In this document: positions 8,422-55,669 of the stretch, one piece after another
Layout: the number at the start of each line of letters is the position of its first letter
Position numbering within the stretch: the first letter of the stretch is position 1
NCBI GenBank assembly: GCA_035084275.1
Contig: CM068742.1
Span: 122,016,001 to 122,080,000 of the forward strand
Length of the DNA stretch: 64,000 bases
From: Hydrolagus colliei
Lineage: Eukaryota
Reading direction: 5' to 3'
Notes under the pieces: model-generated
Told to the model about the DNA's origin: nothing
Database searches by the model: none
Seen by the model: the letters and a program-made list of their open reading frames with translations, nothing else
Made by a program: the position numbers and the translations under genes

Positions 8422-9128
8422 AATAACAATAATAATAATCCTTGCATTTGATATAGCGCTTTTCACATCTTATCGACGTCCCAAAGCGCTTCACAGAATA
8501 TACTATAAAATGAATTGACTTTTTGTGGGCGAATCACGGCAGCCAATTGTGCACAGCAGTGACCCACAAACAGTCGTGGATTGAAATGACCAAGTTTATT
8601 TTTGTGTTTTTTTTGGACGGATTATTATTAGGTGTGTGGAGTGAGGAAACTTGTCCAAGGTTTCGCCCTGACCTGCCTGGATTCGACCACAGATCTCCCC
8701 AGCTTGGTCTTCCCAGTTTGCAAGACAAGTGTTTTAACCACTAAGCCACAGGAGCTCCACAGGAATCCAAATACCTGTAATAATAATTGTTGTATTTCAT
8801 ATGTATTATCACATCTTCTAGATGTCTCAGAATAATATTCTGTAAAGTGAATTGACTGTATATTTTGTTGGTGAAACTTGGCAGCCAATTGTGCCCAGCA
8901 GTGTCCACAAATGGATTGAATGACTACATTTGGGGAGGAGTTTTTTTAAAGGGATTATTACCCCCACAAAAGAGATCCACTAATTGACTAACAACTAGGT
9001 TTCTACTATCTGCTACGTAACCAGAGGCATGTGGAGTAAGAAACTTGTCCAATGCTTTGCCTTGCTGGGAAAACGATCCCAGGTCCTCTCATTTGCGAGG
9101 CAAGTGCTACTAAGCTGCAGGACTCTAA
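8422..9128 (-). mobile_element. Two adjacent head-to-tail tRNA/Deu SINEs (~8422-8760 and ~8778-9128) of different subfamilies
   Basis: Both have tail, body and head. The first carries the ~14-bp head duplication; the second carries the extra ~60-bp internal segment. Confidence 0.85.
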
Positions 9129-16650: not shown

Positions 16651-16702
16651 ATGAGCGGCTCCAGGTGTGTGAAGGTTTGCAGCGCCTTCCTCGTCACTGT
16701 AG
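16651..16702 (+). CDS. EREG: Epiregulin exon 1 (start of signal peptide)
   Basis: MSGSRCVKVCSAFLVTV followed by a phase-1 donor G|gtgagt; downstream of the TATA box. Confidence 0.85.
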
Positions 16703-22526: not shown

Positions 22527-22824
22527 GACCTCTTATGAAATAGATAGCTCCATAAGATAGTTTAATAGATGTTCACAAAATAAAACTTCACAGTAGCTTT
22601 ACAGTCCACATCAGCAAGATAGTGATCTGAAGTGAAACTGTCTAGTTTTATGGAGGTGGTGGGGATGCTGTGGGGGACCTCTTATGAAATGGATAGCTCC
22701 ATCAGACAGTTTAATAGATGTTCACAAAATAAAACTTCACAGTAGTTTTACAGTCCACATCAGCAAGATAGTGATCTGAAGTGAAACTGTCTAGTTTTAT
22801 GGGGGTGGTAGGGATGCTGTGGGG
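22527..22824. repeat. 149-bp tandem duplication (2 copies)
   Basis: Copy 1 at 22527-22675 and copy 2 at 22676-22824, about 6 substitutions apart. Confidence 0.95.
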
Positions 22825-23477
22825 GAGAGTCAATTACTGCCATTCTTTGCTGATACGTAATGCTTTCAGCTTACTTTCTTTTTTTAAAAAAAAGTTTCCT
22901 TTTAGGAATGTACAGCCGCACCCAAGCTAACTATTCGCAAACATTTTATTGAGTTGAAAAACGTGCTTCAACAAAGAGAGGAGATGACACAGGGCTGAAC
23001 CAAACAAGGGTTGGTTAGGGCCATGTAATGACACAATAGTATACATAAGCAGACTTGGCAGGGAGTTATTTTGGATGACAAAATAAAAGGGATTGAATAG
23101 GTTTTAGGTATTGCTAAATACCTAAAACCTGAAAATGAGTGACACGAATGATGAAATTATGCCAATTGGCCAATATTTGATTATCACTCTGGCACATGTC
23201 AACAAGCAATTTTCGATTTAGACACAAATCACTGTCCTTAAGAATCTGCAAAGCAAAAGTTTGGGCCTCAAAACGTTATTGGTGAATATTTACCTCATTA
23301 ACAACCATAACAGCTGTCACTTCCCTCCCCTTTCTCTCTTGTGTTCTGCAATGCTATCCTATGTGAAGGACACAACAGTATACAAACTGCAGGGTGTTAG
23401 TTGTGTGTATGTGTGTGCATTTGTGTGTGGGTGCGTGTGTATAAAGTTTGAAAGGTATATAAGTGGGATCTAACTTG

Positions 23478-25443: not shown

Positions 25444-25521
25444 AACTTTGCCTGTTTTATAGTGGCGAAAGTACAACTATATCCCCACGATGTGCCCCAG
25501 GACACGAATGCAACAGTTTGG
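25444..25521 (+). CDS. EREG: Epiregulin exon 2
   Basis: tttctattcacag|...G|gtaaat, 78 nt, phase 1-1. Reads (E)LCLFYSGESTTISPRCAPGHECNSL; compare human STTVIPSCIPGESSDNC. Confidence 0.85.
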
Positions 25522-28517: not shown

Positions 28518-28644
28518 ACCCTACAACAGTTGAAATTCCTGAGGCTGCAAAGGTCATAGGATCAAAATGCCCTTTGGAAATGGAAACGTATTGTTATAAT
28601 GGAGAGTGCATACATATTGAAAGTGACAATATATCTTTCTGCAA
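28518..28644 (+). CDS. EREG: Epiregulin exon 3 (EGF domain C1-C4)
   Basis: ttttttttgcag|...AA|gtaagt, 127 nt. Reads (D)PTTVEIPEAAKVIGSKCPLEMETYCYNGECIHIESDNISFC(K), with CX7CX4CX10C spacing. Confidence 0.93.
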
Positions 28645-30118
28645 GTAAGTACACTCCTGCCTGTACTGCAATCATCTATAGGAGCTCTTTTAAACTGTTT
28701 GATGTATATGTCTGTGCAGTTCTCTTACATTGTGTGAGGGAGTTTCTCCTAAAATCGATCCATCCCACAGTCCCTTCCCTATACTTCACCCCCTCTGTTG
28801 CCGCCTTGAATGCCCAACTCAAGACCCTCTTGTTTCACCGAACCGTCGATTTCCCCCTCCCCACCCCCTCCCCCAGCTCCCTAACCACCCTATCCTTGCT
28901 GCCCTCCATTCCTACTGATCTAACCCCTTGCTCGGGTCCAAATCCCTGACTATCCACCGCCTTGGGATGACCTCCTGACCTGTCACTCATAATATGACTG
29001 TGGGACATTGCTATGTGCCACTGGCTTCTGCATATCTCACAAAAAAATACAATCTATCCACTTTACAGTATATCCTGTGAAGTTCTTCAAGACGTCTCAA
29101 TGACATAAGGCGCTATATCGAATGCTAGGATTAATATTATTTTTACATATACACATAACCTTTAGTATTGCATGTATTAGGATTACAGAATGTAATCATA
29201 TCACCTTTGCACAGAGATGTGCAAATCTCATTTTGAAGAATGAGTTGCGAAGATGCCTTCCTGACATCAGCGACATGGTATCCTCAAAGGATAGAAGATG
29301 TTCTCAGGAATGCCTTTGATAGAAACTAATTTTCTTATTATTTTTCCCCCCAAAGACTCCTTTTAATTTCATTGAGATGTAGAATCTGTGCGTACGTGTA
29401 TGTATAACCTATAGGAGATCCCCATTATAACACATGACTAAGGTTAATACAGTGACCACTGAATCCATAAATCCAAGGATAATAATAATAATTCTTACAT
29501 TTAGTCCTTTCATATTTGGAAAATGTCTGAAAGCACTTCACAGGATTGTACTGCAAAGTTGAGTGACTGTATTTTACAAGTGAACATGGCAGGCAATTTG
29601 CTCACAGCAGTGCCTCAGCTGCAAAATGTATGACCTAGGGAGAAATGTACTAGGGAGAAGGATGACAGTAATGGGAAGTGTTGGCTCAGACTCCACATCT
29701 TTCCACAGATGTTGGAGGCAACGTGTACTAAGGATGTTTTGTTGCAGATCAATGCTGTCTGTCCAGCTTATGACTGTGTGTGGTACTCATGGATCCAGAC
29801 ATCAGTGTATTAACCAGTGTATTAACCATGTTGGTGGGAAAATATTGTCCAAGATTCACTGGGGGTAAAATGTGCAGCATTTTTGTAGCATATGATGAAC
29901 ATGTTCCAAAATGTGTATGAACATGACATAAAAGATCACAAACTTCATCTCGCTGGATACCAACTGTTCTGCTGCCTTTCTGTGATACTACATCAGCACA
30001 GAACCCAATGGCTGCAAATCCCCAAACATGTTATTGGCGCTGGCAAAATGAGCATTTGTGGCATTGGTGTGACAGATGTCCATTCAGGCAACTACAACCC
30101 TGTATTTTGTTTCTCCAG

Positions 30119-30265
30119 GTGTGATAAAGGTTATTTTGGTAACAGGTGTATGCACATTGAACTGGTGAGGCAACCCCTGACTGAAGAGGATGTAGCGCTG
30201 GCTGTGGCTGTGTCCTTCCTGGTTCTAATTGGCGTATTGATTGCCACTTGGTTAATCTACATAAG
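30119..30265 (+). CDS. EREG: Epiregulin exon 4 (EGF C5-C6, stalk, transmembrane helix)
   Basis: ttctccag|G...AG|gtattt, 147 nt. Reads CDKGYFGNRCMHIELVRQPLTEEDVALAVAVSFLVLIGVLIATWLIYI(R); compare human QPLSKEYVALTV. Confidence 0.95.
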
Positions 30266-31104
30266 GTATTTAAATACAAATTTGCAATCTTCAAAATTTC
30301 AGAACATATTTATGTTTCTATTCAAAGTACTGTGAACAAGTTGATCCCATTATAAAAATGATGCATGTGTGTGTGTATATCTGGGTATATAAAAACATAA
30401 AAGTGCAATCTCTATAGAAACCTTGTTAAGTGATTGTTATGGTACTTTACTGCTATGTATTTGAATTTGAGGGTAAATTTGGATAAGGACAGGAGTATCA
30501 GACATGATAGCTGGAATGCTACAAAATAAAAAAAAACCTTTATCCAATTCTCTCAGAAACTTGGTTCAACATTTTGTTGTATCAATCCTTCATTGAGAAA
30601 ATATGAACCACTTTATAACCTTACTCGTCAGGTACAAATCCACTGACGACATGTCAACTAAATTCACTGATGATTTAAGTCAACTTATTTTGCTAAATAT
30701 ATGAATAGATATTGTATTAAAACCTACAAATGAAAAGGTAAGATTTTCAAAATGTTTGTATACCTGTTCCTCATCCAAATTTATGCTCAAATTCACATGG
30801 TTACTTGTCTCATTATTTATGAGATGTTTCCCGTGCAGATTAAGCTGCTTTCATGTAACAATATTGACTAACTTTTTGATACACGTTATTTTGTAAAGTG
30901 CTTCAAGCTGTTTGTTTTACATGAAAGACTCAATGTTGACACAAGTTACTTTTCTTATTATCCAGCACTGGACTGGTATGAGCAGGAGAAGAAGGGCTGG
31001 GTTGGGAGGCTCTTGCGCATTGTGATGGGTTCCAATGTGTGTCGGACACCTCACTGAACAACACAGAAATGAATGGTTAATTTATACAAAGTTTTACATT
31101 ACAG

Positions 31105-31228
31105 GTGCAAGAAGAGCAGATCGAAACCAGAATATACAGGAGTTACAACAACAACGTCAAATTGTATTTATATAGCTCCTATCAAATCGGGAGGGAATTC
31201 CAATGAAAACTGCCTGCTAAGTATCTGA
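31105..31228 (+). CDS. EREG: Epiregulin exon 5 coding part (cytoplasmic tail)
   Basis: ttacattacag|G, reads CKKSRSKPEYTGVTTTTSNCIYIAPIKSGGNSNENCLLSI*. The start resembles human RKSKEPKKEYERV. Spliced CDS totals 528 nt, 175 aa. Confidence 0.8.
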
Positions 31229-33460
31229 ATATACTGCAGATTTACTTCAAATTGAAGTCAAACTTTGGCAACCTTCACTCATCTCAAAAATGGTCATTGT
31301 GTTTAAAGTAATAATGATAACATGGGACTTGTTTAGCTAGGACCTCACTATCTGTTAGAGCTTTGGCTTGCAGGGCTGAGGATATATCTGCATTCAGTTT
31401 TGTCAGATATGTCTTTTCAGAGCTGCTTAATCTCAACAGGTCTTGCTTTAAACCTATATTTTGGACTCATTTAGACCATGGTTTAAGATCATTATATTAT
31501 CCTCAAAAAGGAGGATGGGCTGAGGGATATTGTGGCTCCAAATCAAGCAAAGGAGATGAAGATGATAAGAGTGCTGGTCAGGTTATGGTATAGACAAGTC
31601 AATACAGCACATGAAAAATGCTATTGAAGTAATAAAATATTTACACGTATATTAATTTGGCCTCAATATTGTTTGGATGGACATAACAGGGACAGAAATG
31701 GCCCATCAAGACTGCACTGGCGGAGTCATTCATTCATACCCGTGATTTATCTACATACCTCTGCCCTATCCCCAAACCACGTACCATATTCCTATGTGCC
31801 TTACCCTATCCCCTTGTCCCTTTTGGAGCCAAATGATTCATGTTAACTAACATTATCATGTAGGTTGAAAGCAGTAAAGTGCAACATTGCTCCTATTTGA
31901 AATCCGGCCCATTTGAAACTGTTATCCTGTAAAAACTCGAATCAATCTCATGAGTGGGTGATATAGCTAACAATACCCATGATATGTACTCATGAGCAAT
32001 CATATCCTTACACAAACTGAGTGGTAAAGCTGGTTACAGATTACTTTGCTCCTGCTACATATTGTATTAGATTTGACAAGTCCTATGTGCTTTGTAATTT
32101 AGTTTGTAACTGCTATCTGACAAGCTAAGTTAATATCAATGAGAAGGGAAAAAAATACCAAGTTCTTCTGTGAGGGGATCAGCTTGTACCATGGAAAATG
32201 TTTGTAACATATTTATTTATAGGAATATATTTATAAGGTTTAGTAGTAACTGTTTAAATTGCCTGCTTGTAATGGGAACACATGCGTTTTTGTCACAGAC
32301 ATGGACCCAGTAGAGGGCGATGTTTGACTGATCCTGTGACTAGCACAATAAAGCTTGTAGCCGGTAGAATATTCAGTTTGATTATATTTGGGATAAATCT
32401 CTACTATTTATGTTGGTTGTACTAAGTCACTTATCAGCTATAAGTTATAACTATTAAGTTGTATTCAGAGCCACTCAGAACCGTCAACTAAATCCAGTGC
32501 TCCCCTGAAGTGTACCGTGATATTTAAATGAATGATTGACAGTATAGGATATTTATAGGTCAATGCTAAGTGTGATTTAACTGCGGTGTTCTGGATAGGA
32601 TTAATTCACCGCACACATTACAAATACCACTAATTCTAAGACAAGTTCTTCCTCACAACGTTTTGCCATTTTATCAACTTTTTGGTAAGATTGGCAGCAG
32701 AATCTGTCCCTCACCAGAAAGGGCAATCAAACAGAAACAATATGCACTTAGATACCACTGTTTCAATATTAAAAATCTCTTAATTGGCAAGATGAGAGAC
32801 CTACATTTAAAAAATATTGTTTTATAGATATTAATAAAGGAAAAAAAAAGAGATTTTTGATAATACATCTGACGACTTTTGTATTTCAGAATTGTTTTTC
32901 TATTCATACATGTTACTATTTTCTATTGAAAAACAGTTTTCAGTTATTCTGGTTTAAAGCAGCAAAAGTATCCATGTAGAAATATGATGCCGCTATAGAA
33001 GTACGGTATATTGAAGAGGGAGAATAATGGAATAAAACTTTAATATAATGCCTTATCATGTCATTGAAACATCTCACAGTGTTTCACAGGACTTACTATA
33101 AAGTGTAATGACTGTCTTTGTAGTTGAATATATTGCTGGCTTTGCAGGAAGCAAAACTGGGCAGTTTCAGGATAGTTCAATAGAACATTGATATCCAGCC
33201 ATATTGCGCCTTATAGCAAAACAGCAGATTATTAGCAGAATATGGTAAAGCATTCTCGTATCTCATGTGCTTATTCAATCTGCTGCCCCAGAATCATTGG
33301 TCATTTCATTGTTATTGTGCTACCGATATATTGTTTGTCGGAGGATTTGACAGTGTATTATATGAATGGAGTGAATGGTAGATTTTCATGTTACAAAGTT
33401 TCTGAATTTGCATTTCACAACTTGAAACTGTTCAGCAATAAATCTGCTTATTATAAGATG
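31229..33460 (+). other. EREG: Putative long EREG 3'UTR with AU-rich elements and alternative poly(A) signals
   Basis: Repeat-poor AT-rich tract; ATTTATTTA near 32212; AATAAA at 32347, 33031 and 33437, the last followed by GT-rich sequence. Confidence 0.45.
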
Positions 33461-34889: not shown

Positions 34890-37512
34890 TACAGTATTCT
34901 GTTCGATACCCGGCTCTTTTCACTCTCAGATCCAGTCCCTGACCAGGACCACCTTCTTCCACCTCTGCCACATTCCCCACCTCCGACTGTACCTAACCCC
35001 AAATGCAGTCGAATCTCTCATGCATTTGTTTGTAACCTTCCACTTGGATTACTCTAACACATTCCTCACCGGTCTCCCCAGTTCCACTATTCAGAGGATC
35101 CAGCTCATTCAGAACTCTGCCATCCACATACTGACCTGGACCGAACTCCATACCCACATCTCACAAGTTCTGTCCAGGCTCTACTGGCTCCTCATCAGCG
35201 AATGGATCGACATCAAGAACCTCACACTCATGTTCAAATCCACTCACATCCTGGCACATCCCTACCTCACTGACCTCCTCACTCCACAATCCTCCCTCCA
35301 CCTTGCACTTGACTGGCACCAGCCTCCTACTCATCCCTCGCACCCTACGCCCCAACATTGGAGGTCACGCTTTCAGCCATTTTACTCCAAAACTCTGGCA
35401 CACTCTCCCTCAATCCCTCCACGTTGCCCCCTCTCTCCCCTTTTTCAAGTCCCACCTGAAAACCTTCCTCTTCGGTCATCTCCACCACTGTGAAGTGCTT
35501 TGAGATGCAACCCTGCATGGCGGGTGCGATATAAGTGCAAGTAGATGTTGATGTGTCTGCACCAATCTCATCCTCCAATAGTAATTCCCAAAAAGTTAAT
35601 ATTCATTCCCTTTTTTGAAAGAGTTGATTGGTGCAGCATGAACTGCTTTTTGCTAAGTGTCTGTTCTGTAGGACAATAAAGTATGACTAGAAATTCCACC
35701 CAGCCATAGTTTAGTCTGTGAGACCTTGTGAATCTTCTAAATCTTCTAAATTGTAAACCTTGTAAATTGAATCTCAACTTTATACTTTTAAAAAAAGAAC
35801 TGAGGAAAACATGTTTCTATTTAAGGCTGAATTTTTGCAGACTTAGATTAATTTCAGCCTCTATCACCAGCTCTGGTTCAGATCTTTTAAGTTTAAACTT
35901 TGACCCATTGACACCCCCTTCCCTCTATTCCCACCCAATTCTGTCTCTCTGCCTCCAACCTCAATTCCAAGAAAACTGGTAGTCTGACAGGCTGTCAGAC
36001 ATCAAATCTTGAATGAGATCCAACCTTCTGCTGCTGAATATCAGCAAGACTGAGGCCCTCCTGATTGGCTCGTGCCAGCAGCACCGCACCTCAAGCACTG
36101 ATAGCATTCAGTATCCATGGATCCACACTCCACCTCACCTAAGCCAGCCATGAACCTGGGCATCTTGTTCGACCCACAACTGTTCTTTCTCCCATATATT
36201 CATGTTATGATCAGCATTACTTTCCACCACCTCTGCAATGTTGTCTGACTGCTACTGCCGCACCCCCCAGGCCGCTGTAACCCTCATACATGCATTTGTC
36301 ACCTCAAGGCTCAACTACTGAAACTCCCTCTTTGTCAACCAACCCAACGTTTCCCTCCACAAGCTGCAAATCATCCAGAACTATCCCAGGCTCTGTGACC
36401 CCATCACCCCCACTAGCTCGGCTCCATTGGCTCTCCATCCCTCAGAGGATAAAATCAAGATCCTTGTCCTCACTTTCAAGCCCTCCATGGCCTTGCCTCC
36501 TCCTACCTTTCTGACTTGCTGACCCACTATCAACCTGTCTGTTCCCTCCATTCAGCAGGCTCTGGCCTCCCTTGCCTCCTTCAAGTCACGACTCAAAACC
36601 CTTCTTTTTGACCATGACTTCAGCCGACCTCCTACTTCTCTACCCACCCTCAACCTGATCCTGACTGTTCAGTGCCTTGGGACATCCTTCCTACATAAAA
36701 AGCACTTTACAAATGTAATATTGTTGCTATTGTTTCCCCTACATACTCTGTCATCTAAATGCCTGTTCAGCACAATTTTTCTCTGAGAAGGCTATTGCCC
36801 TAAATGTGGGATGGATAAAGTTACAGCTAAAAGACTAGTAGATGTGCATGCATTTCACAGTGGTCAAGTCACTGGGAGAAACTCTACTCTTTTCCAGTAG
36901 TACCATGTGATCTTTGACATCTCCATGAACAGGCAGATGGAACCTCGATTTGATGTTTCATCCAAAATATTTGCTTTGGATTGCCCAGCCTCTTGAACCC
37001 CTCCTCACACAAGCTGGAGATAACCCAGAACTCTGACACGCATGCCTTCCTTAGCACCAACTTCACAAGTCTATCAACCCCATCCTTGCTTGTCTGCACT
37101 GGCTCCCCATTCTCCAGCAGATCAGATTCAACATCCTTGCACTCACATTCAAATCTCTACACAGCTTTGCTGCTCCCTATCTTTATGACTTACTGCAACC
37201 TTTTCACCCTGACTGCTCCCTTCAATCAGCAGTTCCAGCCTGCTTCGTGTCCCTTGTCTGAACGCCTCACCATCAATGGGGTGAACTTTCTGTCATTCTG
37301 TCACCACTTTCCATCCTGGATTTCCTCTGCCTTGCCCCCTCGCTTTAAAGGTAACTTGGAGATCTTACTGTTTGACCAAGCATTTGGACACTTGTTCCTC
37401 CCTCCTTCCTTCAATCATCGCACCCCAGTTTAGGCTTCCAGTTGGCTCTGTGGACTTTGAAACATCGTCCTGACATGACAAGCACTAATCAAGTTTAAAA
37501 TTGTTGTTGTTG
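34890..37512 (+). mobile_element. Cluster of three degenerate L2 3' fragments (~34890-35555, 35985-36730, 36975-37512)
   Basis: Remnant peptides HLFVTFHLDYSN...IQLIQNSA, RPNIGGHAFS...LKTFLF and HKLEITQNS; gttgttg tails. Confidence 0.8.
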
Positions 37513-38130
37513 TAACTCCATATACGTGCTATCCTCAGTCTCAGAGAGTACTTCTATTGCAAAAGTCTGGAATTTCTATTCCCACATCCTTGTGGCTCTC
37601 TTAAAAGAGGGTAATAGCCCATTTACTAGCAATTACTGATGAATAATGTACTTTGGATTCCTACCCACAAGAAACTATTTTGTAATGTCTAAACGCACAT
37701 CATACTAAACCCCTACAAAGGATAGAGAACCTTTCATCTCATTAATCTGGGCTGGATTATTTTTGTGGTAACTCAGGTCACCAATTGAGAGGACAGATGT
37801 TTATTTTCTTAATATCTGTGCAAAGGTACATAAACAAAGACAACAGGTTGACATTAAGAATTTACTTCTAGGTTGTCAGGAGATCTGAGAATTTTTTGCG
37901 ACCAAAGTATGGTGGAATGCAAAGGTCTATGAAAAAATAAATGAGTAAGAATTAAGAATTAAAGATTTTAAATCAACACAAAACATATTTTGGAGAATAA
38001 ATCCTCTCTCTTCATAATGTTTAAATAACTAGAAGACAGCAGAAAGAACTAGAAAAGATTATCATTCCTACATAGGTATTTCAACAAAGACCTTGAACAC
38101 TGTTAGCCTGATTATGAACTCATGTTACTA

Positions 38131-41100
38131 ACAATAACAACAACAACAATTTACATTTATATAGCGCCTTTCACGTCGGGAGGACGTCCCAAGGCGCTAA
38201 ACAAGAGGCGTGTGACCCGAGCTGGGAGGGGAGTGTTTGGGAAGGGGTGAAACACGAAGGGGAGGTAAAAGAGTTCGGGGTGAAACAAAAGGCACGATCG
38301 AAGAGGAAAGTCTTCAAATCGGCCTTGAAAGAGGAAAGGGAAGAGGTGAAACGGAGGGATTGAGGGATGGCATTCCATAGGGTGGGAGCGGAGAAACTGA
38401 AGGCCCGGCCTCCGATGGTGGGGCGGTTCGGGCGGGGGGCTTGGAGTAGGCCAAGTCCTGTTGAACGGAGGGCCCGGGTGGGCGTGTAGGGGGAGAGTAG
38501 ATCGGCTAGGTAGGATGGGGCAAGGCCGTGTAAGGCCTTGTAGGTGAGGACGAGGATCTTAAATTCGATCCTCTGGAGGATGGGGAGCCAGTGGAGACGG
38601 GCGAGGGTGGGGGTTATGTGGTCACGGAGGCGGGTGCGGGATAGTACACGGGCTGCAGAGTTTTGGATGGCCTGCAGCCTATGAATGGAGGAACTGGGGA
38701 GGCCGACTAGGAGAGAGTTTCCGTAGTCCAGCCGTGAGGTGATGTACGCGTGCACGAGTGTTTCGGCAGCGCGGGGGGTAAGATAGTTGCGGAGCCTGGC
38801 AATGTTGCGCAGATGGAAATAGGCGGTGCCGGTCAAGGCGCGGATGTGGGGGAGGAAGGAAAGTTTTTGATCGAACATGATGCCGAGGTTCCTGATTGGC
38901 TTTGTGAGGTGGAGAGTGCAGCCTTGGATGTTGAGGCTGGCAGCGCCCGATGTGCGGAGGCGCTGGCTTGAGCCAATCAGGAGGGCCTCGGTCTTACTCA
39001 CGTTCAATTGCAAAAAGTTGTCCCTCGTCCATGATTCGATGTCGGACAGACATGCTGTCAGAACATCGATCGTCTGGGGGTTGAGGGATGAGGCAGAAAG
39101 GTACAACTGGGTGTCATCCGCATACATGTGGAAATTTACCCCATGTTTGCAGATGACGTCGCCCAGAGGGAGCGTGTAAAGCGTGAAAAGAAGGAGACCA
39201 AGGACAGAGCCTTGAGGGACGCCGTGGGAAACTGTGCGGGGGTTTGATGAAAAGCCATTGGAAGAAACAAAATGTAAACGATGGGTCAAATAAGAGTGGA
39301 ACCAGTCAAGGACTGAGCCTTGAAGGTTGAGGTGGGAGGAAAGACGTTGAAGGAGGATGGTGTGATCGACTGTGTCGAACGCAGCAGACAGGTCAAGGAG
39401 GACGAGGAGGCAGAGGGAGCCCTGGTCACAGGCGGTTAGGATGTCATTTGTGACCTTGACCAGGGCAGTTTCTGTACTGTGGATAGGGCGGAAACCTGAT
39501 TGGAGGGGTTCAAAAAGTGAATGAGTTGAAAGGAAAGAGCGGAGCTGGGAGGCAACCACTCTTTCAAGGACCGTGGATAGAAACGGGAGGTTGGAGATGG
39601 GTCTATAACTTGATGGTTGCGACGCATCAAGGGAGGGTTTCTTCAGGATAGGGGTGATGGTGGCTGTTTTAAGGGAGGTAGGGACGGTTCCTGAGGAGAG
39701 GGAAAGGTTAATGGTGTCAGAAATGAGTGGGGCTAACAAATGGAGCTGGGTGCGGAGGAGGGGGTTGGGGATGGGGTCCAATGAGCACGTGGTGGGTTTC
39801 ATGGAGGTGATTGTTTTTGTGATTGAAAGCGGGGTGGTGGGGTTGAAAGTGTGAAATGGGGTTGAGTAGGGGTTGAGGTAACTGATGAGGGCGCTGAGGT
39901 GGAGGAGTGGTGGGGGGAGGAAACCGCAGAGCGGATTTTCTCAATTTTGGATTCGAGGAAATCCAGCATCTCTTCGCAACGAACGTTTGAGGAGAGGATC
40001 TGCGAGGTGAGGCGGGGGGGGGGCGGAGGAGCTGGTTGGTGGTGGCGAAGAGGAGGCGGTGGTTGTCCTTCGCTTCCAGGATTATCCTGGAGTAGAAGGC
40101 TGATTTTGGCGGTGGCTAGGGCGGAGCGGTAATTTTTGATGCGGTCCAGCCAGATTTGCCGGTGGACCGTGAGGCCAGATTTGAGCCAGGTGCGTTCAAC
40201 TGCTCTCACTTGGCTTTTGAGGGAGCGGAGGTGAGATGTGTACCACGGTGATGATCGGGAATGGGAGACGGTTTTGGAGGTGAGAGCGGCCAGGGTGTCA
40301 AGGGTAGTGGAGAGGGTGTTGTGGAGGGCGGTGGAGGCGGAGGATGGGTCTGTACAAAAAGAATGCCATTGTGGGAGGAGGTCGGAGGTTTCTAGGGCAG
40401 AGGTGAAAGTTTGAGGGGGAATCTTCTTCCAGGGCCGGTAGAAGATGGTGGTGGGTTTGGAAGTGGAGGGGGGAGGGATAGAGGTGTTGCAGGAAACGAA
40501 AAAATGGTCAGAAATGGCCTTGTCTGTGATGGTGACGCCAGAGACGTCGAGGCCTCGGGTGATCACCAGATCGAGAGGATGGCCGTGAGTGTGGGTGGCA
40601 GTGTTGATATGAAGGGAGAAGTTGAAAGACGAAAGTAAAGAGGAAAATTCAGAGGAAATGGGGCAGGAGGGGGTGAAATGGAGGTTGAAATCGCCAAGAA
40701 TAATAAGGCGATCAGAGGAGGCACAAAGGGAAACTAAAAGTGAAGAAAAGTCTGAAATGAAAGTGGGGGAGGGTTTGGGGGGGCGATAAACTAATAGGAT
40801 TTCGAAAGAACTGTGGGAGGAGTGAGAGAGGGTGAGATGTTCAAAAGAGGGGAAGGAGCCGGAGGAATAGGGGGATAGGGCGAGGGATGACTTTGAAATG
40901 AGGGCCACACCACCGCCACGACGGTTGGGTCGAGGAGCATGGTGGAATGTGGGTGGTGTGGCTTCAACGAGGGGGAAAGTGTCGCCTGGGGTGATCCAAG
41001 TCTCCGTCAGGGCCATGATGTCACCGTTCTCATCAAGGATGAGATCGTTGATGGCCAGGGTCTTGTTGCAGACAGAGTGGACATTTTGGAGACCGATGCG

Positions 41101-41227
41101 GAAAAAGCAGTTGGCCGAGGGGTGTGAGGGGGGGCTGGGATGGTCGGCGGGGAGGGTGGGGATTTCAATAAGGGAGGAGAGGTTGACCCCCCGGGTTTGT
41201 GTCCGGTGGGGCTGGCGGTGACGGTGA
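38131..41227 (-). mobile_element. Near-complete L2-clade LINE (APE endonuclease plus reverse transcriptase), frameshifted
   Basis: APE motifs GLQNVHS, ALTETW, GGGVA, VYRPP, LGDFN, GHPLDLV, ISDH; RT motifs YRPISNLPF, QSGFR, LLDLSAAFDTVDH, GVPQGS, MYADDTQLY; (TTG)n tail at 38131-38149; possible 5-bp TSD TACTA at 38126-38130 and 41228-41232. Confidence 0.95.
38171..39802 (-). CDS. L2 ORF2 RT portion (543-aa open frame, separated from the APE portion by frameshifts)
   Basis: ORF track; contains the YADD catalytic motif. The APE-containing frame runs from ~41220 to ~40105. Confidence 0.85.
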   Translation of the reverse strand: MKPTTCSLDPIPNPLLRTQLHLLAPLISDTINLSLSSGTVPTSLKTATITPILKKPSLDASQPSSYRPISNLPFLSTVLERVVASQLRSFLSTHSLFEPLQSGFRPIHSTETALVKVTNDILTACDQGSLCLLVLLDLSAAFDTVDHTILLQRLSSHLNLQGSVLDWFHSYLTHRLHFVSSNGFSSNPRTVSHGVPQGSVLGLLLFTLYTLPLGDVICKHGVNFHMYADDTQLYLSASSLNPQTIDVLTACLSDIESWTRDNFLQLNVSKTEALLIGSSQRLRTSGAASLNIQGCTLHLTKPIRNLGIMFDQKLSFLPHIRALTGTAYFHLRNIARLRNYLTPRAAETLVHAYITSRLDYGNSLLVGLPSSSIHRLQAIQNSAARVLSRTRLRDHITPTLARLHWLPILQRIEFKILVLTYKALHGLAPSYLADLLSPYTPTRALRSTGLGLLQAPRPNRPTIGGRAFSFSAPTLWNAIPQSLRFTSSLSSFKADLKTFLFDRAFCFTPNSFTSPSCFTPSQTLPSQLGSHASCLAPWDVLPT

Positions 41228-41804
41228 TACTACCCACTTTGTCTCATGTCTCAGTGGTTCAGGTAGTCTGGATCTTACCATCTGCTTAGCTTTATACACT
41301 TGATTCTCTTTAGTATATTGATAAAAGGCCTTTCCCCCCCATTGGCCATTTGCAATATTAGTAAATGTTAACTAGTGTTCTGTGTATGCTCTATTTGGGT
41401 AATTTTACAATTATTATCTATTAATTGTTTAAAATAAAATGGATGCTTTTTTTTGGTAGTTGTGTAGAAGTAACTGATGGAGTCTTACTTTGGAAACATC
41501 CCTTCATAATTAGTCATGATAATTTTTTCACACCCCTGTGCTGTGAGTCAGTGCGAGTTAGCCTCATAGTTTGGAGGTGAAGGAGGAGATCATTGGCCAC
41601 GATGATGGGATGTCTAGAGAATAGAACCACATCACAATCCTTGAAGACTAAAATAAAATTGGGGGTGGTGGGTTGGGGAGTATTAGTTACAACAACAGTT
41701 GGACTTAAATTAATGAGAATTTTAGATTTGGTATTAAAAATGGTCCACGTTTTGAGACTGTCTGCATTCTTTCAATGGGATTCAAAGATAGTGGTAAGGT
41801 TGTG

Positions 41805-42348: not shown

Positions 42349-42733
42349 GACAACAACAACAATTTACATTTATAGAGCGCCTTTCACGTCGGGAGGACGT
42401 CCCAAGGCGCTGAACAGGAGGCGTGTGACCCGAGCTGGGAGGGGAATGTTCGGGAAGGGGTGAAACACGAAGGGGAGGTAAAAGAGTTTGGGGTGGAACA
42501 AAAGGCATGATCGAAGAGGAAAGTCTTCAAACCGGCCTTGAAAGAGGAAAGGGAAGAGACGAAACGGAGGGATTGAGGGATGGCATTCCATAAGGTGGGA
42601 GTGGAGAAACTGAAGGCCCGGCCTCCGATGGTGAGGCGGTTCGGGCGGGGGGCTTGGAGCAGGCCAAGTCCTGTTGAACGGAGGGTCCGGGTGGGCATGT
42701 AGGGGGAGAGTAGATCGGTTAAGTAGGATGTGG
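42349..42733 (-). mobile_element. Young 5'-truncated copy of the same L2 family as 38131-41227
   Basis: Highly similar to 38138-38522, with the same C-terminal peptide ...LGSHASC.APWDVLPT*. Confidence 0.95.
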
Positions 42734-44989
42734 CAATAGTGATCTAGTGCCAATAGTGGGGTCAAGTTACATAGGAAGATAGAAATTCCTGGATGTCAAA
42801 ATACCAAGGTCCATCTAGTCCCCCTTCTACCATTCTGATAATTACATGCTACAATAATGGAGATATTGATAGCAAGTAATTATTTGTGGATTAGTCCAGT
42901 GTAAAGCTTTGGGAACCTTAGATCCAAAGTTACCTAGTTCTTACACAATTTATCTCCAGTTTCAATGCACATTGGCTTTACGATTCTTTATGTCTGTGCT
43001 TGCAATGCTGCTATTTTTCTTTCTCACTATTTCCCTGATGTATATTCCCGGATTTGCTTCAAATCTCCTCCTTCCATATTCAAGACTGAGATTGATAGAT
43101 TTCTAAAGGATAGAGGGATTAAGGGATATGGGGATAGGGTGGAACATGGAATTAGGTTAGAAGTTCAGCCATTAAATGGCGGTGGGAGGCTCGATGGGCT
43201 GAATGGCGTACTCCTATTTCCTGTGTTCTTAAGTTTTTTTTTACGTGAAAACAGTATGAGCAAAGAGGTAGGAGTGGCATTAGCAGGATAGCTCTAGTGG
43301 GGCACCAGCATAGCAATGGTTGGCCGAAGACATGTTTTGTCATTTTGTACGATTTTCTAATATTTTAATGATACCTTCTGCAATATTATGACTGTCACCC
43401 ATAAATTTCTACCATGATTCTGGCTGTTAGATTATACATCCCATGTCAATGCTCAAAAAGAGATGGGAATTTCTCCCCTTGTTTTAGCCAATAATCTTCC
43501 TGATGAAGTAATCATTCACCTCCTTGCTGTTTGTAATGTAGTTCGATTTAATAGAAAACATCTGTTTATATGACTTGGATTGCTTATTAAGAAATTCCAT
43601 TAAGAAATTGCAGGATAACATTTGCAATGTTCCTAAATCCATTCCTTATGTTAAATTGCATAACCCTAACCTTAATGTATGAATGAGAATTGGCTAATTG
43701 GTTCCTTAATTTACACCAATGTTAACTCACCTCACAATCTACAATTAGAACACTGTGTTCATGCCCTCCCTCTAATCGTACTGCATCGAGTTAACAGAAA
43801 ACAGAGGAAATAGACTTGAAAAAGTCAGTTTCCTGATGGAAAACACTGGAATGCCCATTCTAAGGTTAAAATGATCTTCGAATTTGGGATTGCCTTGGAC
43901 TCTACTATTATCCTGAAACGCAGAAGCAGAGGTTGGCAGCTGCACTCCAATTACAGATAGTGAGTTAATACTAGACTGCACAATGGAACTGTTAATGTTT
44001 CTTTAATGCTTTCCTTATGCTATTTGATACAAAGGAATAGGTTAAGAAATATCACAAATTTTACCTACTTACCTCTCTGTGCTTTAAACTTTGAATGATT
44101 TCTAGAATGATTCATACACTTTAATGCAGATATGTACATCTGCTGTAGGATAAACCTTCCTCACCAGTGAACGTTATTGGGCTGTGGCTAGGTTTTAACA
44201 GTTGGGTTTGCCAAGAATTGTCCTTTACTGGAAGACTCCCCAGGAAGATAATAATGTGTCAGCACGGGTTTAAAGTCTGCACACATACATAGCTGGAACA
44301 CATACTAAATTCTGCAGCAGGGCCTCTCATTGCATGATACTCCACTGATGAGAAAGCCATTGATAACTCCGAGCACATCAGAGGATCAATGGTAATAATA
44401 TACCACTGTGGCCCACGCACACAATGCCCCACACACCTCAGAATGAAAGTCTGATGATTTCACCACTCTTCCTATTGCTGATGTTGAAAGCACTCGTCCT
44501 TCCCTCCTGGTCTTAATAGCTGCATGCCTAGTGATTCATACTGTACTGCAGCTGCTATTGAGGGAGCCGTCACATCAGCAAGTACAGCTACTATTGCTCA
44601 CTTTGAACTAAAACTTCAAAGATCCTTTAATATCCTTTTAATCCACTTTACCCTGAGACAGGTGGTTGGATCGGGAAGGGAAAATATGATTGAAAGTACA
44701 CTCAACCTGACAGTTCTTGATGTGCCTTGAAAGAGGGGAGGGAGAGAGCGAGTCAATGGGGACTCCAGGAGTGGAATCCCAGATAGAGGGGACAAAATGG
44801 CAATGATGGGGCAGATGGAGTGGGGGACATGGTGTTTGCTGGGAAAAGGGAATGGCTGGTTCGAGAGATAGCCCTCCACAACTCCTCATCCCAAACCACC
44901 AGCTCGGGTGCGGATCCTTGACTGTCCACGCCTTGGGAAATCCTCCTGACATGAAAGGTGCTAACAATTGTAACTTGTTGCTGTATTAA

Positions 44990-53648: not shown

Positions 53649-53850
53649 TCCAGCCAGTTGTTAGACCAAGGAGTGGAGATGAAAATAAAAATAGTGAACC
53701 CAGAAAAGGAAGACGCAGAGGAAATAAAAAACGAAAGAGGACAAAACGAGGAAAGCGAAAACTCAAAGACTTGTGTAAAACTGTGTACAAGAATTATTGC
53801 ATTCATGGAACCTGCAAGTTCTTGAAGGAGCTCAATAAAACATCATGCAT
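53649..53850 (+). CDS. AREG: Amphiregulin exon 3 (basic heparin-binding region and EGF C1-C4)
   Basis: gcattatcag|...AT|gtaagt, 202 nt. Reads (V)QPVVRPRSGDENKNSEPRKGRRRGNKKRKRTKRGKRKLKDLCKTVYKNYCIHGTCKFLKELNKTSC(I). Confidence 0.93.
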
Positions 53851-54574
53851 GTAAGTGTATCTAAAGTTTCAATATACATTGAAATGATAACTGGTGAGGC
53901 TTATCTTGAAGCTTGTTTTCATTTAAAGGTTACATATTTTTGAGATTGGCATCTCATTTTGGTTTCCAGTACAAATACGGGCACACAATTTTTAAAAGTT
54001 TGTCCTTGTTTTTTTATCTTGAATAATTATGGTATACAGTATTTATATGAATCATGGCCCATATAAAAATGCGTTTCAATTCTGGACATAAATATCCGTG
54101 CAGGAAGTAGGATCCATTGGAAACTCCATTGGAAAGCAAAACACAATGGCATATACAGTATAGCATGCTTTGACAATGTACATTTATATTGGGGTTTGCC
54201 ACCAAAGGTGCACATCACCACATATAACACACTTACTGCCATAGGGAGCTTCCTCTCTAGCAGAAGAATATTATGGGGTTGGTTTTACAAGCAACAAGTT
54301 TCTGCACCTCCCTCAACAACAGCAAAATTACATTTGTATGGCGCCTTGCACATCGGGAGGACATCCCAATGTACACTTAGTACAAGCACATAGCATAGTA
54401 GCAGCTCAGGCTGGTGAAAGAGATTCAAAAGTACCAGAGTAATCCTTTTTAGCACTGGTGCACTCTAAGCACCAACAGCAACCTTCAGGTCTGGTATCTC
54501 AATTCATTATACAGTAGTTGGTCAGCCTTTCAGAATATGCTGAGGACGCTTGTGCAAAGCTCCATCAAATAGTG

Positions 54575-54870
54575 GGCGATTCAGTGACTCGTGGTCACAG
54601 ATTTAAAATAGTTTCAAAACGAAGCAGAGGGGAGCTGAGGAGAATTTTTTTCACTCAGCGGGTTGTTCGAATCTGGAATGCATTGCCTGAAAAGGTGGTG
54701 GAGGCAGATTCCATAACAGCTTTTAAAGGGAACTAGATCTTTATTTAGGAAGAGCAGGTCTGTTAGGTTATGGGGAGAAAGCTGGGCAGTGGGATTGACT
54801 TGCTCTGTTCAAAGAGCCGGCACAGACTAGATGGGCCAAATGGCCTCCTTTAGTGCTGTATGATTCTATG
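54575..54870 (+). mobile_element. CR1 LINE 3' end
   Basis: TRGHRFKI...FFTQRVVRIWNALPEKVVEADSITAFK remnant and tail tatgattctatg. Confidence 0.9.
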
Positions 54871-55335
54871 AATTAAATGGTACATGGTGCAAGTTAGTGT
54901 CAGTTGAATTCCAGTGGTGATCTTTATGTTAGCTTATCCATGTGCGTGTATTTATTCCACCTAAAAACTTGTGTGTTGAGAAACAAAATCTGAGTTAAAT
55001 ATCATCTTGAGTAAATTCCTTTACAAAATTCCTCATCACTCCAAAGGAAAAGGGCCCAGTGATGAATTATCTAGTGTGAGAAGTTATATGTATGCATAAA
55101 CAAATGCAGCTGGGAAATTGATAGCGTGATGATTTATGTGGAAATGTTAAGCCAAGATGGAGTTATCAGGAGTTTACTGTATATACTTACTAATATAAGG
55201 CATTCAATTTCACCCTGTCTTAGGAGACAAGGCCATTTTGTCTTAGAATATTGCATGTTATCTCCCCACCATATTTCATGAGGAAAAACATGGCAAAACC
55301 GATTACATTAACATTTAAATTTGATTTCTCTTCAG

Positions 55336-55491
55336 ATGCCATCCTGGGTACCAGAATGAACGCTGTGGCATTCAGGCATTGAGCACTGGAACTAGTGAGG
55401 AGAGCATTGATGGCCTCACAATTGCATTACTGCTCGTGGGAGCAATGCTCACGCTTGCTGCAATTAGTGTGGTTGCCACTGTGATACTGAG
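55336..55491 (+). CDS. AREG: Amphiregulin exon 4 (EGF C5-C6, stalk, transmembrane helix)
   Basis: tttctcttcag|A...AG|gtaagt, 156 nt. Reads CHPGYQNERCGIQALSTGTSEESIDGLTIALLLVGAMLTLAAISVVATVIL(R). Confidence 0.93.
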
Positions 55492-55669
55492 GTAAGTGCA
55501 ACTTTACAGTGAAACATTCTTGTCTTTCAGACTCGTATCTATGTATAAGTAAATCTTGCCTCTCTGTCATATGCTTATATCTGTTGCAGGAAAAGGTTAT
55601 CAAGGGTTGATGGGTTAGCAAAAAAAATCATCATTTGCCATTTACAGTATTCATATATATATATATATA

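Follow-up and report, generated by a model that had tools for sequence, protein, structure and literature searches.

An old LINE end probably rewrote the epiregulin tail of chimaeras by frameshift

A stretch of the predicted last coding exon of epiregulin (EREG) in the chimaera Hydrolagus colliei resembles the end of a LINE, which raises the question of how a retroelement fragment came to lie within the reading frame of an EGFR ligand and what it did to the cytoplasmic tail of that protein. The window analyzed here is the whole stretch of 64,000 nt, and all positions refer to it. The first-pass annotation had proposed that the tail of epiregulin was reshaped by the 3' end of a LINE lying in antisense, and both the LINE match and the absence of the fragment from eight shark tails uphold this. 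We consider it probable that an old LINE end rewrote the chimaera epiregulin tail by frameshift and was fixed as a tolerated rather than a selected change.

EREG was modelled as five exons with GT-AG introns and one 175-aa frame comprising a signal peptide, a single EGF domain, a transmembrane (TM) helix and a short tail (Table 1). The top five PDB matches of the exon 3 EGF domain were all (pro)epiregulin, ahead of EGF, AREG and BTC; EREG exon identities to Callorhinchus milii were 69–90%, and exon 4 matches the proepiregulin of that species (XP_007890164, V9KZJ6) at 94% identity. The gene is, as predicted from these matches, the EREG orthologue of a holocephalan. A Pfam search of three single-exon peptides gave no domain match. 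EGF-ligand genes flank EREG upstream (L011 9042–9939) and, with a basic stretch, downstream (53654–55492). By their features, we take the upstream neighbour to be EPGN and the downstream one to be AREG. The flanking genes thus fit the EPGN-EREG-AREG cluster described in PMC5017282. Exon 5, when re-read, encodes CKKSRSKPEYTGV-TTTTSNCIYIAPIKSGGNSN-ENCLLSI and ends with a TGA at 31226–31228, in full agreement with the sequence, translation and stop claimed initially.

Table 1. Positions of the EREG exons, the parts of exon 5 and the reference LINE copy within the window
Feature	Positions	Strand	Evidence
EREG exon 1, coding part, signal peptide start	16651..16702	+	tblastn, weak, against 1-17 of proepiregulin from C. 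milii; donor GT and phase agree
EREG exon 2	25444..25521	+	tblastn 69% to P0004; AG/GT
EREG exon 3, EGF loops A-B	28518..28644	+	top five PDB matches (pro)epiregulin; 81% to P0004; exon 3-4 junction a loose end, 3 X4 reads
EREG exon 4, EGF loop C and transmembrane helix	30119..30265	+	94% identity with proepiregulin of C. milii
Exon 5 host part, CKKSRSKPEYTGV with YxxV motif	31105..31144	+	matches C. milii, Heptranchias and Pristiophorus tails; exon 4 junction inferred from homology
46-nt 3' end of an L2-type LINE (or tail-sharing SINE), encodes TTTTSNCIYIAPIKS on + strand	31145..31190	- (antisense to EREG)	BLAST, shuffles, position scoring
Junction zone fitting LINE and shark codons E-K-N-P-x; likely imperfect microhomology at 5' truncation	31191..31205	.	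7.3 versus 4.9 bits; mechanism inferred from the cases in PMC4245944
Ancestral-tail DNA, shark frame KTAC*VS, now shifted, ends ENCLLSI and TGA	31206..31228	+	shark profile: 216 of 527,960 sampled positions as high
EREG 3' UTR	31229..33350	+	stranded RNA reads at about 8-21x in X4; AATAAA at 33437; 12 ATTTA
Young long LINE copy, reference (endonuclease and RT, 3' stem-loop, short tandem tail)	38136..41229	-	Pfam RVT_1, Exo_endo_phos; stem-loop z -3.8

BLAST aligned 31147–31194 with 38136–38183 at 39 of 48 positions (81%). The local score of 51 was reached in none of 5000 dinucleotide shuffles (maximum 28), and the score of 39 obtained with the AAC run removed was likewise reached in none of 5000 (maximum 29). 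The L2 3'-end match originally placed at 31145–31205 therefore withstands shuffled controls. Among the matches listed for exon 5 in its own genome, all 39 others fall on this LINE-like stretch. The reference copy carries, over 38174–41229, the Pfam endonuclease (PF03372) and RT (PF00078) domains that are common to the whole CR1 group, and its 3' stem-loop of -23.6 kcal/mol (z -3.8) is followed by (UUG)n; the fragment in exon 5 no longer folds (z 0.6). A cluster search of the LINE RT returned generic RVT_1 clusters only, and the clade was left at L2-type; the label L2 is presumed from C-terminal motifs and from the tail type. Chondrichthyan L2 elements described in PMC13343379 belong to canonical L2 clade A. 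Within the 264 kb sampled (the 64-kb window and 20 sampled 10-kb loci), 94 repeat ends with two related tail types passed the filter out of 106 BLAST matches, and 70 of these 94 were AAC-tailed, the exon 5 copy included. The source of the fragment may be an L2-type LINE or a partner SINE with the same tail; the shared 3' tail of 46–60 nt, common to several families, fits both. The reference copy itself has frameshifts in ORF2, and a second copy at 42350–42736 is 95% identical to it over its 3' 387 nt.

How far the LINE sequence extends into the exon was assessed by position-by-position bit scores. The segment 31145–31190 fits the LINE only, with +21.5 bits over a 25-nt core (31166–31190); 31191–31205 is compatible with either source (LINE, +7.3 bits; shark epiregulin codons, +4.9 bits); and 31206–31226 fits the shark codons alone (+8.2 versus -11.0 bits for the LINE). 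LINE-derived residues may number up to 20, with 15–16 of them sure because the scores assign 31145–31190 to the LINE alone. The initial figure of about 20 LINE-encoded residues thus stands for 15–16 of them, while the rest are ambiguous between repeat and host. No codons are duplicated against the shark register, in keeping with the earlier remark that no target-site duplication (TSD) is evident.

The DNA beyond the insert resembles the tail that sharks still have. When the first 12 codons of eight shark tails, a length chosen after inspection, are back-translated into a profile, the best local score falls at 31191, a value reached by 2 of 127,930 window positions, by 6 of 527,930 sampled positions and by 0 of 69 repeat copies in the same register; when some 120 possible starts are allowed for, p is roughly 0.001–0.002. 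Shark prefixes of 7–13 codons gave per-position fractions of 3e-5 to 1e-4. With 31145–31190 taken out, the exon reads YTGV-EGIPMKTAC*VS against YIVV-EKNPAKTEC in Heptranchias (shark YIVV followed by EKNPAKTECKES), with no gap or duplication. At either boundary, 31191 or 31206, the net insert is +46 nt (3n+1), and the ancestral frame now carries a TAA at 31218–31220. Since shark-like codons resume after a net +46 nt, the LINE likely shifted the frame and displaced an older shark-type tail, rather than adding 20 aa in frame as had been supposed. The frameshift would leave a tail of 15 repeat residues, the junction zone, and last residues from host DNA read out of the old frame. The suspicion, voiced in the first-pass annotation, that the residues after the insert stand in a non-ancestral frame agrees with both the profile and the gap-free comparison. 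Shark tail codons 12–31 had no significant match past the insert (145 of 400 and 178 of 400 controls were as good), and a gapped alignment of 31 shark codons was not significant either (43 of 299 controls). A distal likeness of LNILQ to LNTLP was rejected, codons 12–31 not being significant.

A word-index search with C. milii EREG yielded that protein and no other, whereas HMMER and alignment searches for outgroups returned nine shark clusters, all outgroups being predicted proteins rather than DNA, and no ray or skate EREG. Eight of the nine have a colinear last exon and a conserved tail of 29–31 aa with no Thr run and no LINE residues, as in Heptranchias (QYIVV-EKNPAKTECKESF...ILYC); Chiloscyllium plagiosum (P0008/P0155) has another annotated last exon and was left out of the profile. 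The eight proepiregulins retained (Heptranchias, Pristiophorus, Heterodontus, Carcharodon, Mustelus, Scyliorhinus, Stegostoma and Chiloscyllium punctatum) are colinear with Hydrolagus up to the motif position, and their first 12 tail codons match the Hydrolagus DNA after the insert. They differ in lacking LINE residues, in ending mostly with Cys (7 of 8) and in having, in 6 of 8, no complete YxxPhi. Sharks conserve this long, Cys-ended tail, so its loss may not have been neutral. The sorting-motif Tyr is absent from five of the eight shark proteins (P0007, P0159–P0164, P0006) and the hydrophobic +3 residue from one more. Across vertebrates, the number of residues after the motif position ranges from 3 to 31: the tails of gar and bichir end three residues past the motif (YQEVQLA), and that of lungfish ends YAGLPTSIV. 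The NQ codons that precede PEY in C. milii and Heptranchias are absent from Hydrolagus exon 5 (31124–31130). Since Hydrolagus is without NQ and a full YxxPhi is retained in just 2 of the 8 sharks, the epiregulin tail looks labile and loosely constrained outside the chimaera insert also.

Callorhinchus milii bears on the age of the insertion. Its proepiregulin (XP_007890164, V9KZJ6) corresponds to that of Hydrolagus in gene, site and Thr-run-Asn-Cys start (TTTTTTNC), but it has kept the upstream NQ and ends EYTGVQTTTTTTNCV, with a stop where the repeat and Hydrolagus have a Tyr codon, so that 10 residues follow YTGV compared with 27 in Hydrolagus. The shared start and the early stop suggest that the event is old and that the read-through is not conserved; a single insertion before the Hydrolagus/Callorhinchus split, with a later stop in Callorhinchus, is the simplest reading. 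The proposal to date the insertion by aligning EREG last exons was carried through for C. milii and eight sharks, as proteins, though with no ray. If Hydrolagus lies outside Callorhinchidae, the insertion would be at least as old as the crown-holocephalan split. Dates given in PMC11521621 are 173 Ma for crown holocephalans on morphology, 201 Ma for the Chimaeridae-Rhinochimaeridae split on DNA, and 15 Ma for living Callorhinchus. The insertion is genuine and probably Mesozoic, and it was most likely tolerated.

It had been remarked that the fragment diverged from the young L2 without gaining a stop, as though the frame had been kept. We compared the insert with the other AAC-tailed copies, which were found by BLAST and assumed to be non-coding. 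Over the same 15 codons, 55 of these 69 copies are free of stops, including 30 of 41 at 85% identity or less and 16 of 24 at 82% or less, and over 27 codons 46 of 69 remain open. An antisense end of this repeat is thus open by default, so the open frame is what neutrality predicts and is no evidence of selection or exaptation, which serves as a caution; moreover, C. milii stops directly after NCV, and the frame is kept neither beyond the neutral expectation nor across species. The comparison of the insert with the LINE draws on one DNA sequence with about nine differences, and the two chimaera sequences carry no apparent sign of selection on the insert so far.

Protein P0019 has YERV at the position of human Y156 if residues are counted in what we take to be a 169-aa chain. 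The sorting signal of human pro-EREG described in PMC5017282, PMC8657471 and PMC10940456 is a basolateral YxxPhi at Y156. In Hydrolagus the aligned motif is present as YTGV, an unbroken YxxV that precedes the insert, and no YxxPhi is formed by the new Tyr (IYIAP), which has Pro at +3. The insert had been placed in the region that governs sorting, whereas the YxxPhi Tyr described for the human protein (PMC5017282, PMC8657471) aligns upstream of it. With YTGV untouched and no YxxPhi created, basolateral sorting can be expected with some confidence to be unchanged and the new tail, short and probably disordered, to be a tolerated passenger. Unlike in human pro-EREG, the sequence after the motif reads as LINE-derived and frameshifted.

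The main alternative grants the insertion but sees in it an exaptation: the Thr run and Asn-Cys of the LINE, kept in both chimaera lineages, would have taken over the role of the lost shark tail and come under selection, as a lipidated or PDZ-engaging Cys-bearing end or as a phosphorylated Thr patch. The T-run-N-C is indeed present in both species, 7 of 8 shark tails end with Cys and C. milii with NCV, and the RNA individual has no listed difference over 31105–31228. Yet slippage of an AAC microsatellite adds or removes 3 nt at a time and so preserves the Thr frame by itself; N-C/N-Y and I-Y-I-A-P are ordinary coding of family copies; C. milii has lost everything past NCV; and the IYIAP Tyr, with its Pro at +3, makes no YxxPhi. 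We regard this account as unlikely, and the same holds for its fullest form, in which a 46-nt LINE end replaced a shark-type EGFR-ligand tail at the base of living chimaeras and Thr-run-Asn-Cys was then selected as a new lipidation or trafficking element; if true, an L2 would have given rise to a signalling tail no younger than the crown-holocephalan split. A chance LINE match, or an independent origin of the C. milii tail, is very improbable. Ends of the repeat are very crowded, at 70 in 264 kb, and C. milii is known as protein only, but 0 of 5000 shuffles reach the score, and site, frame and N-C are identical in both species.

Whether the insert is read as coding sequence depends on the transcript. 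Three RNA runs from one sample, about 99% alike to unique parts of the EREG locus, gave 3, 6 and 73 reads on 30050–31549 at 94% likeness. X4 reads lie in a single orientation, consistent with + strand RNA, and cover 31100–31249 at 4.2, 4.8 and 10.5x; they list no difference in 31105–31228, and no joint removes the insert. The exon 3-4 junction was seen in three reads, and no exon 4-5 joint was found at a threshold of three reads (73 X4 reads on the stretch). Of what had been sought in RNA, sense coverage through 31228 was thus obtained, but not the 30265–31105 junction. X4 depth in intron 4 is 5–8x over 30265–30600 and 0 at 30650, with 4x over the 55 nt before the acceptor; with this coverage and the exon 4-5 joint missing, most reads across the insert may derive from unspliced RNA. 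The locus is transcribed across the insert, and inclusion in spliced mRNA is predicted. A DNA contig of X1, which may be the source sample, spans the insert site with 9 differences in 5.4 kb.

The same reads lend themselves to an account in which the insert is mostly non-coding, the main mRNA either reading into intron 4 and ending at about 30550–30600 (tail RYLNTNLQSSKFQNIFMFLFKVL) or using a cryptic AG at 31174–31175 (tail SSYQIGREFQ, without YTGV). It would explain the intron 4 coverage that falls to 0 at 30650 and the unlisted exon 4-5 joint, and there is an AATAAA at 30525 as well as an AG with a T-rich tract at 31175. Against it stand the 3' UTR past exon 5, covered at 8–21x to about 33350, and the conservation of exon 5, as far as YTGV, in C. 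milii and in sharks, both C. milii entries using a homologous acceptor; the 73 reads on the stretch come from one sample, and the A-run at 30524–30534 could prime internally. Intron reads are common in single-cell libraries. We judge this account improbable, at close to the level given to exaptation. Over 30266–30650, reads continue beyond exon 4 into the intron and stop near 30600, after the AATAAA at 30525 and the A-run; they possibly represent an intronic polyadenylation isoform with another 24-aa tail, or else pre-mRNA or internal priming. The repeat, in antisense, brings a T-rich tract and an AG at 31155–31175, a potential cryptic acceptor whose use would remove YTGV and was not seen in the RNA.

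Our preferred explanation, a tolerated frameshift, would have run as follows. A heavily 5'-truncated end of an L2-type LINE was inserted antisense into the predicted last coding exon, right after YTGV and likely before the split from Callorhinchus, presumably by a target-primed route in which annealing made the 5' junction and no TSD arose. Judging from the cases in PMC4245944, a truncated 5' end that annealed would leave behind a zone like this one of 15 nt, similar to both partners. The ZfL2-1 and ZfL2-2 inserts described there share with the Hydrolagus insert the 5' truncation, the flank-like junction of an annealing pathway and a TSD that is short or absent; they arose de novo in cultured cells, whereas the Hydrolagus insert is old and about 19% diverged from the young copy. 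The net +46 nt likely shifted the frame and with it removed the shark-type distal tail. Fixation likely reflects tolerance of residues past YxxV and not selection of the new ones, and near-neutral drift may afterwards have produced a stop at the Tyr codon in C. milii and read-through to 27 residues in Hydrolagus.

Last exons into which transposable elements (TEs) have inserted form a class described by Sela et al. 2010 (PMC2911107), where only 38–50% of exonized TEs in chicken, zebrafish and Ciona are given as divisible by three. Hydrolagus matches these cases in having a retroelement fragment, of a length other than 3n, in an existing terminal exon; it differs in that the insertions described in PMC2911107 usually affect the UTR, whereas this one lies in the coding part and changes the C-terminus. 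Here a TE fragment sits inside the reading frame of a predicted terminal exon and is absent from the outgroups. It falls outside classical exonisation, which depends on a splice site brought in by the TE, since the exon could do without a new one: the acceptor (31104) belongs to the host, lies 40 nt before the insert and is homologous to the exon start of C. milii and sharks, and the cryptic AG (31175) was not seen in use. Among the papers listed by full-text searches of a mainly open-access literature, none dealt with this LINE insertion in EREG. The locus is a clean example, and one that can be dated, of a LINE altering the C-terminal end of a signalling ligand among cartilaginous fishes, and the insert is a candidate presence/absence marker for holocephalans. 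It is also a natural experiment on the pro-EREG tail: chimaeras keep YxxV and have lost the distal tail, and 6 of 8 sharks show the reverse, with the distal tail kept and YxxPhi incomplete.

Some minor features of the window were recorded along the way. Another repeat end, at 37503–37519 (minus strand), shares with the exon copy (31139–31155) 17 letters across the flank and the start of the tail, by chance or through target preference. Intron 1 holds, by eye, a direct repeat of two copies of about 150 nt (about 22527–22826). A second dense repeat family, probably a SINE, whose tail is (AAT)n and whose 3' end is related, occurs at 8425, 12217, 23825, 46876, 48998, 59551 and other positions.
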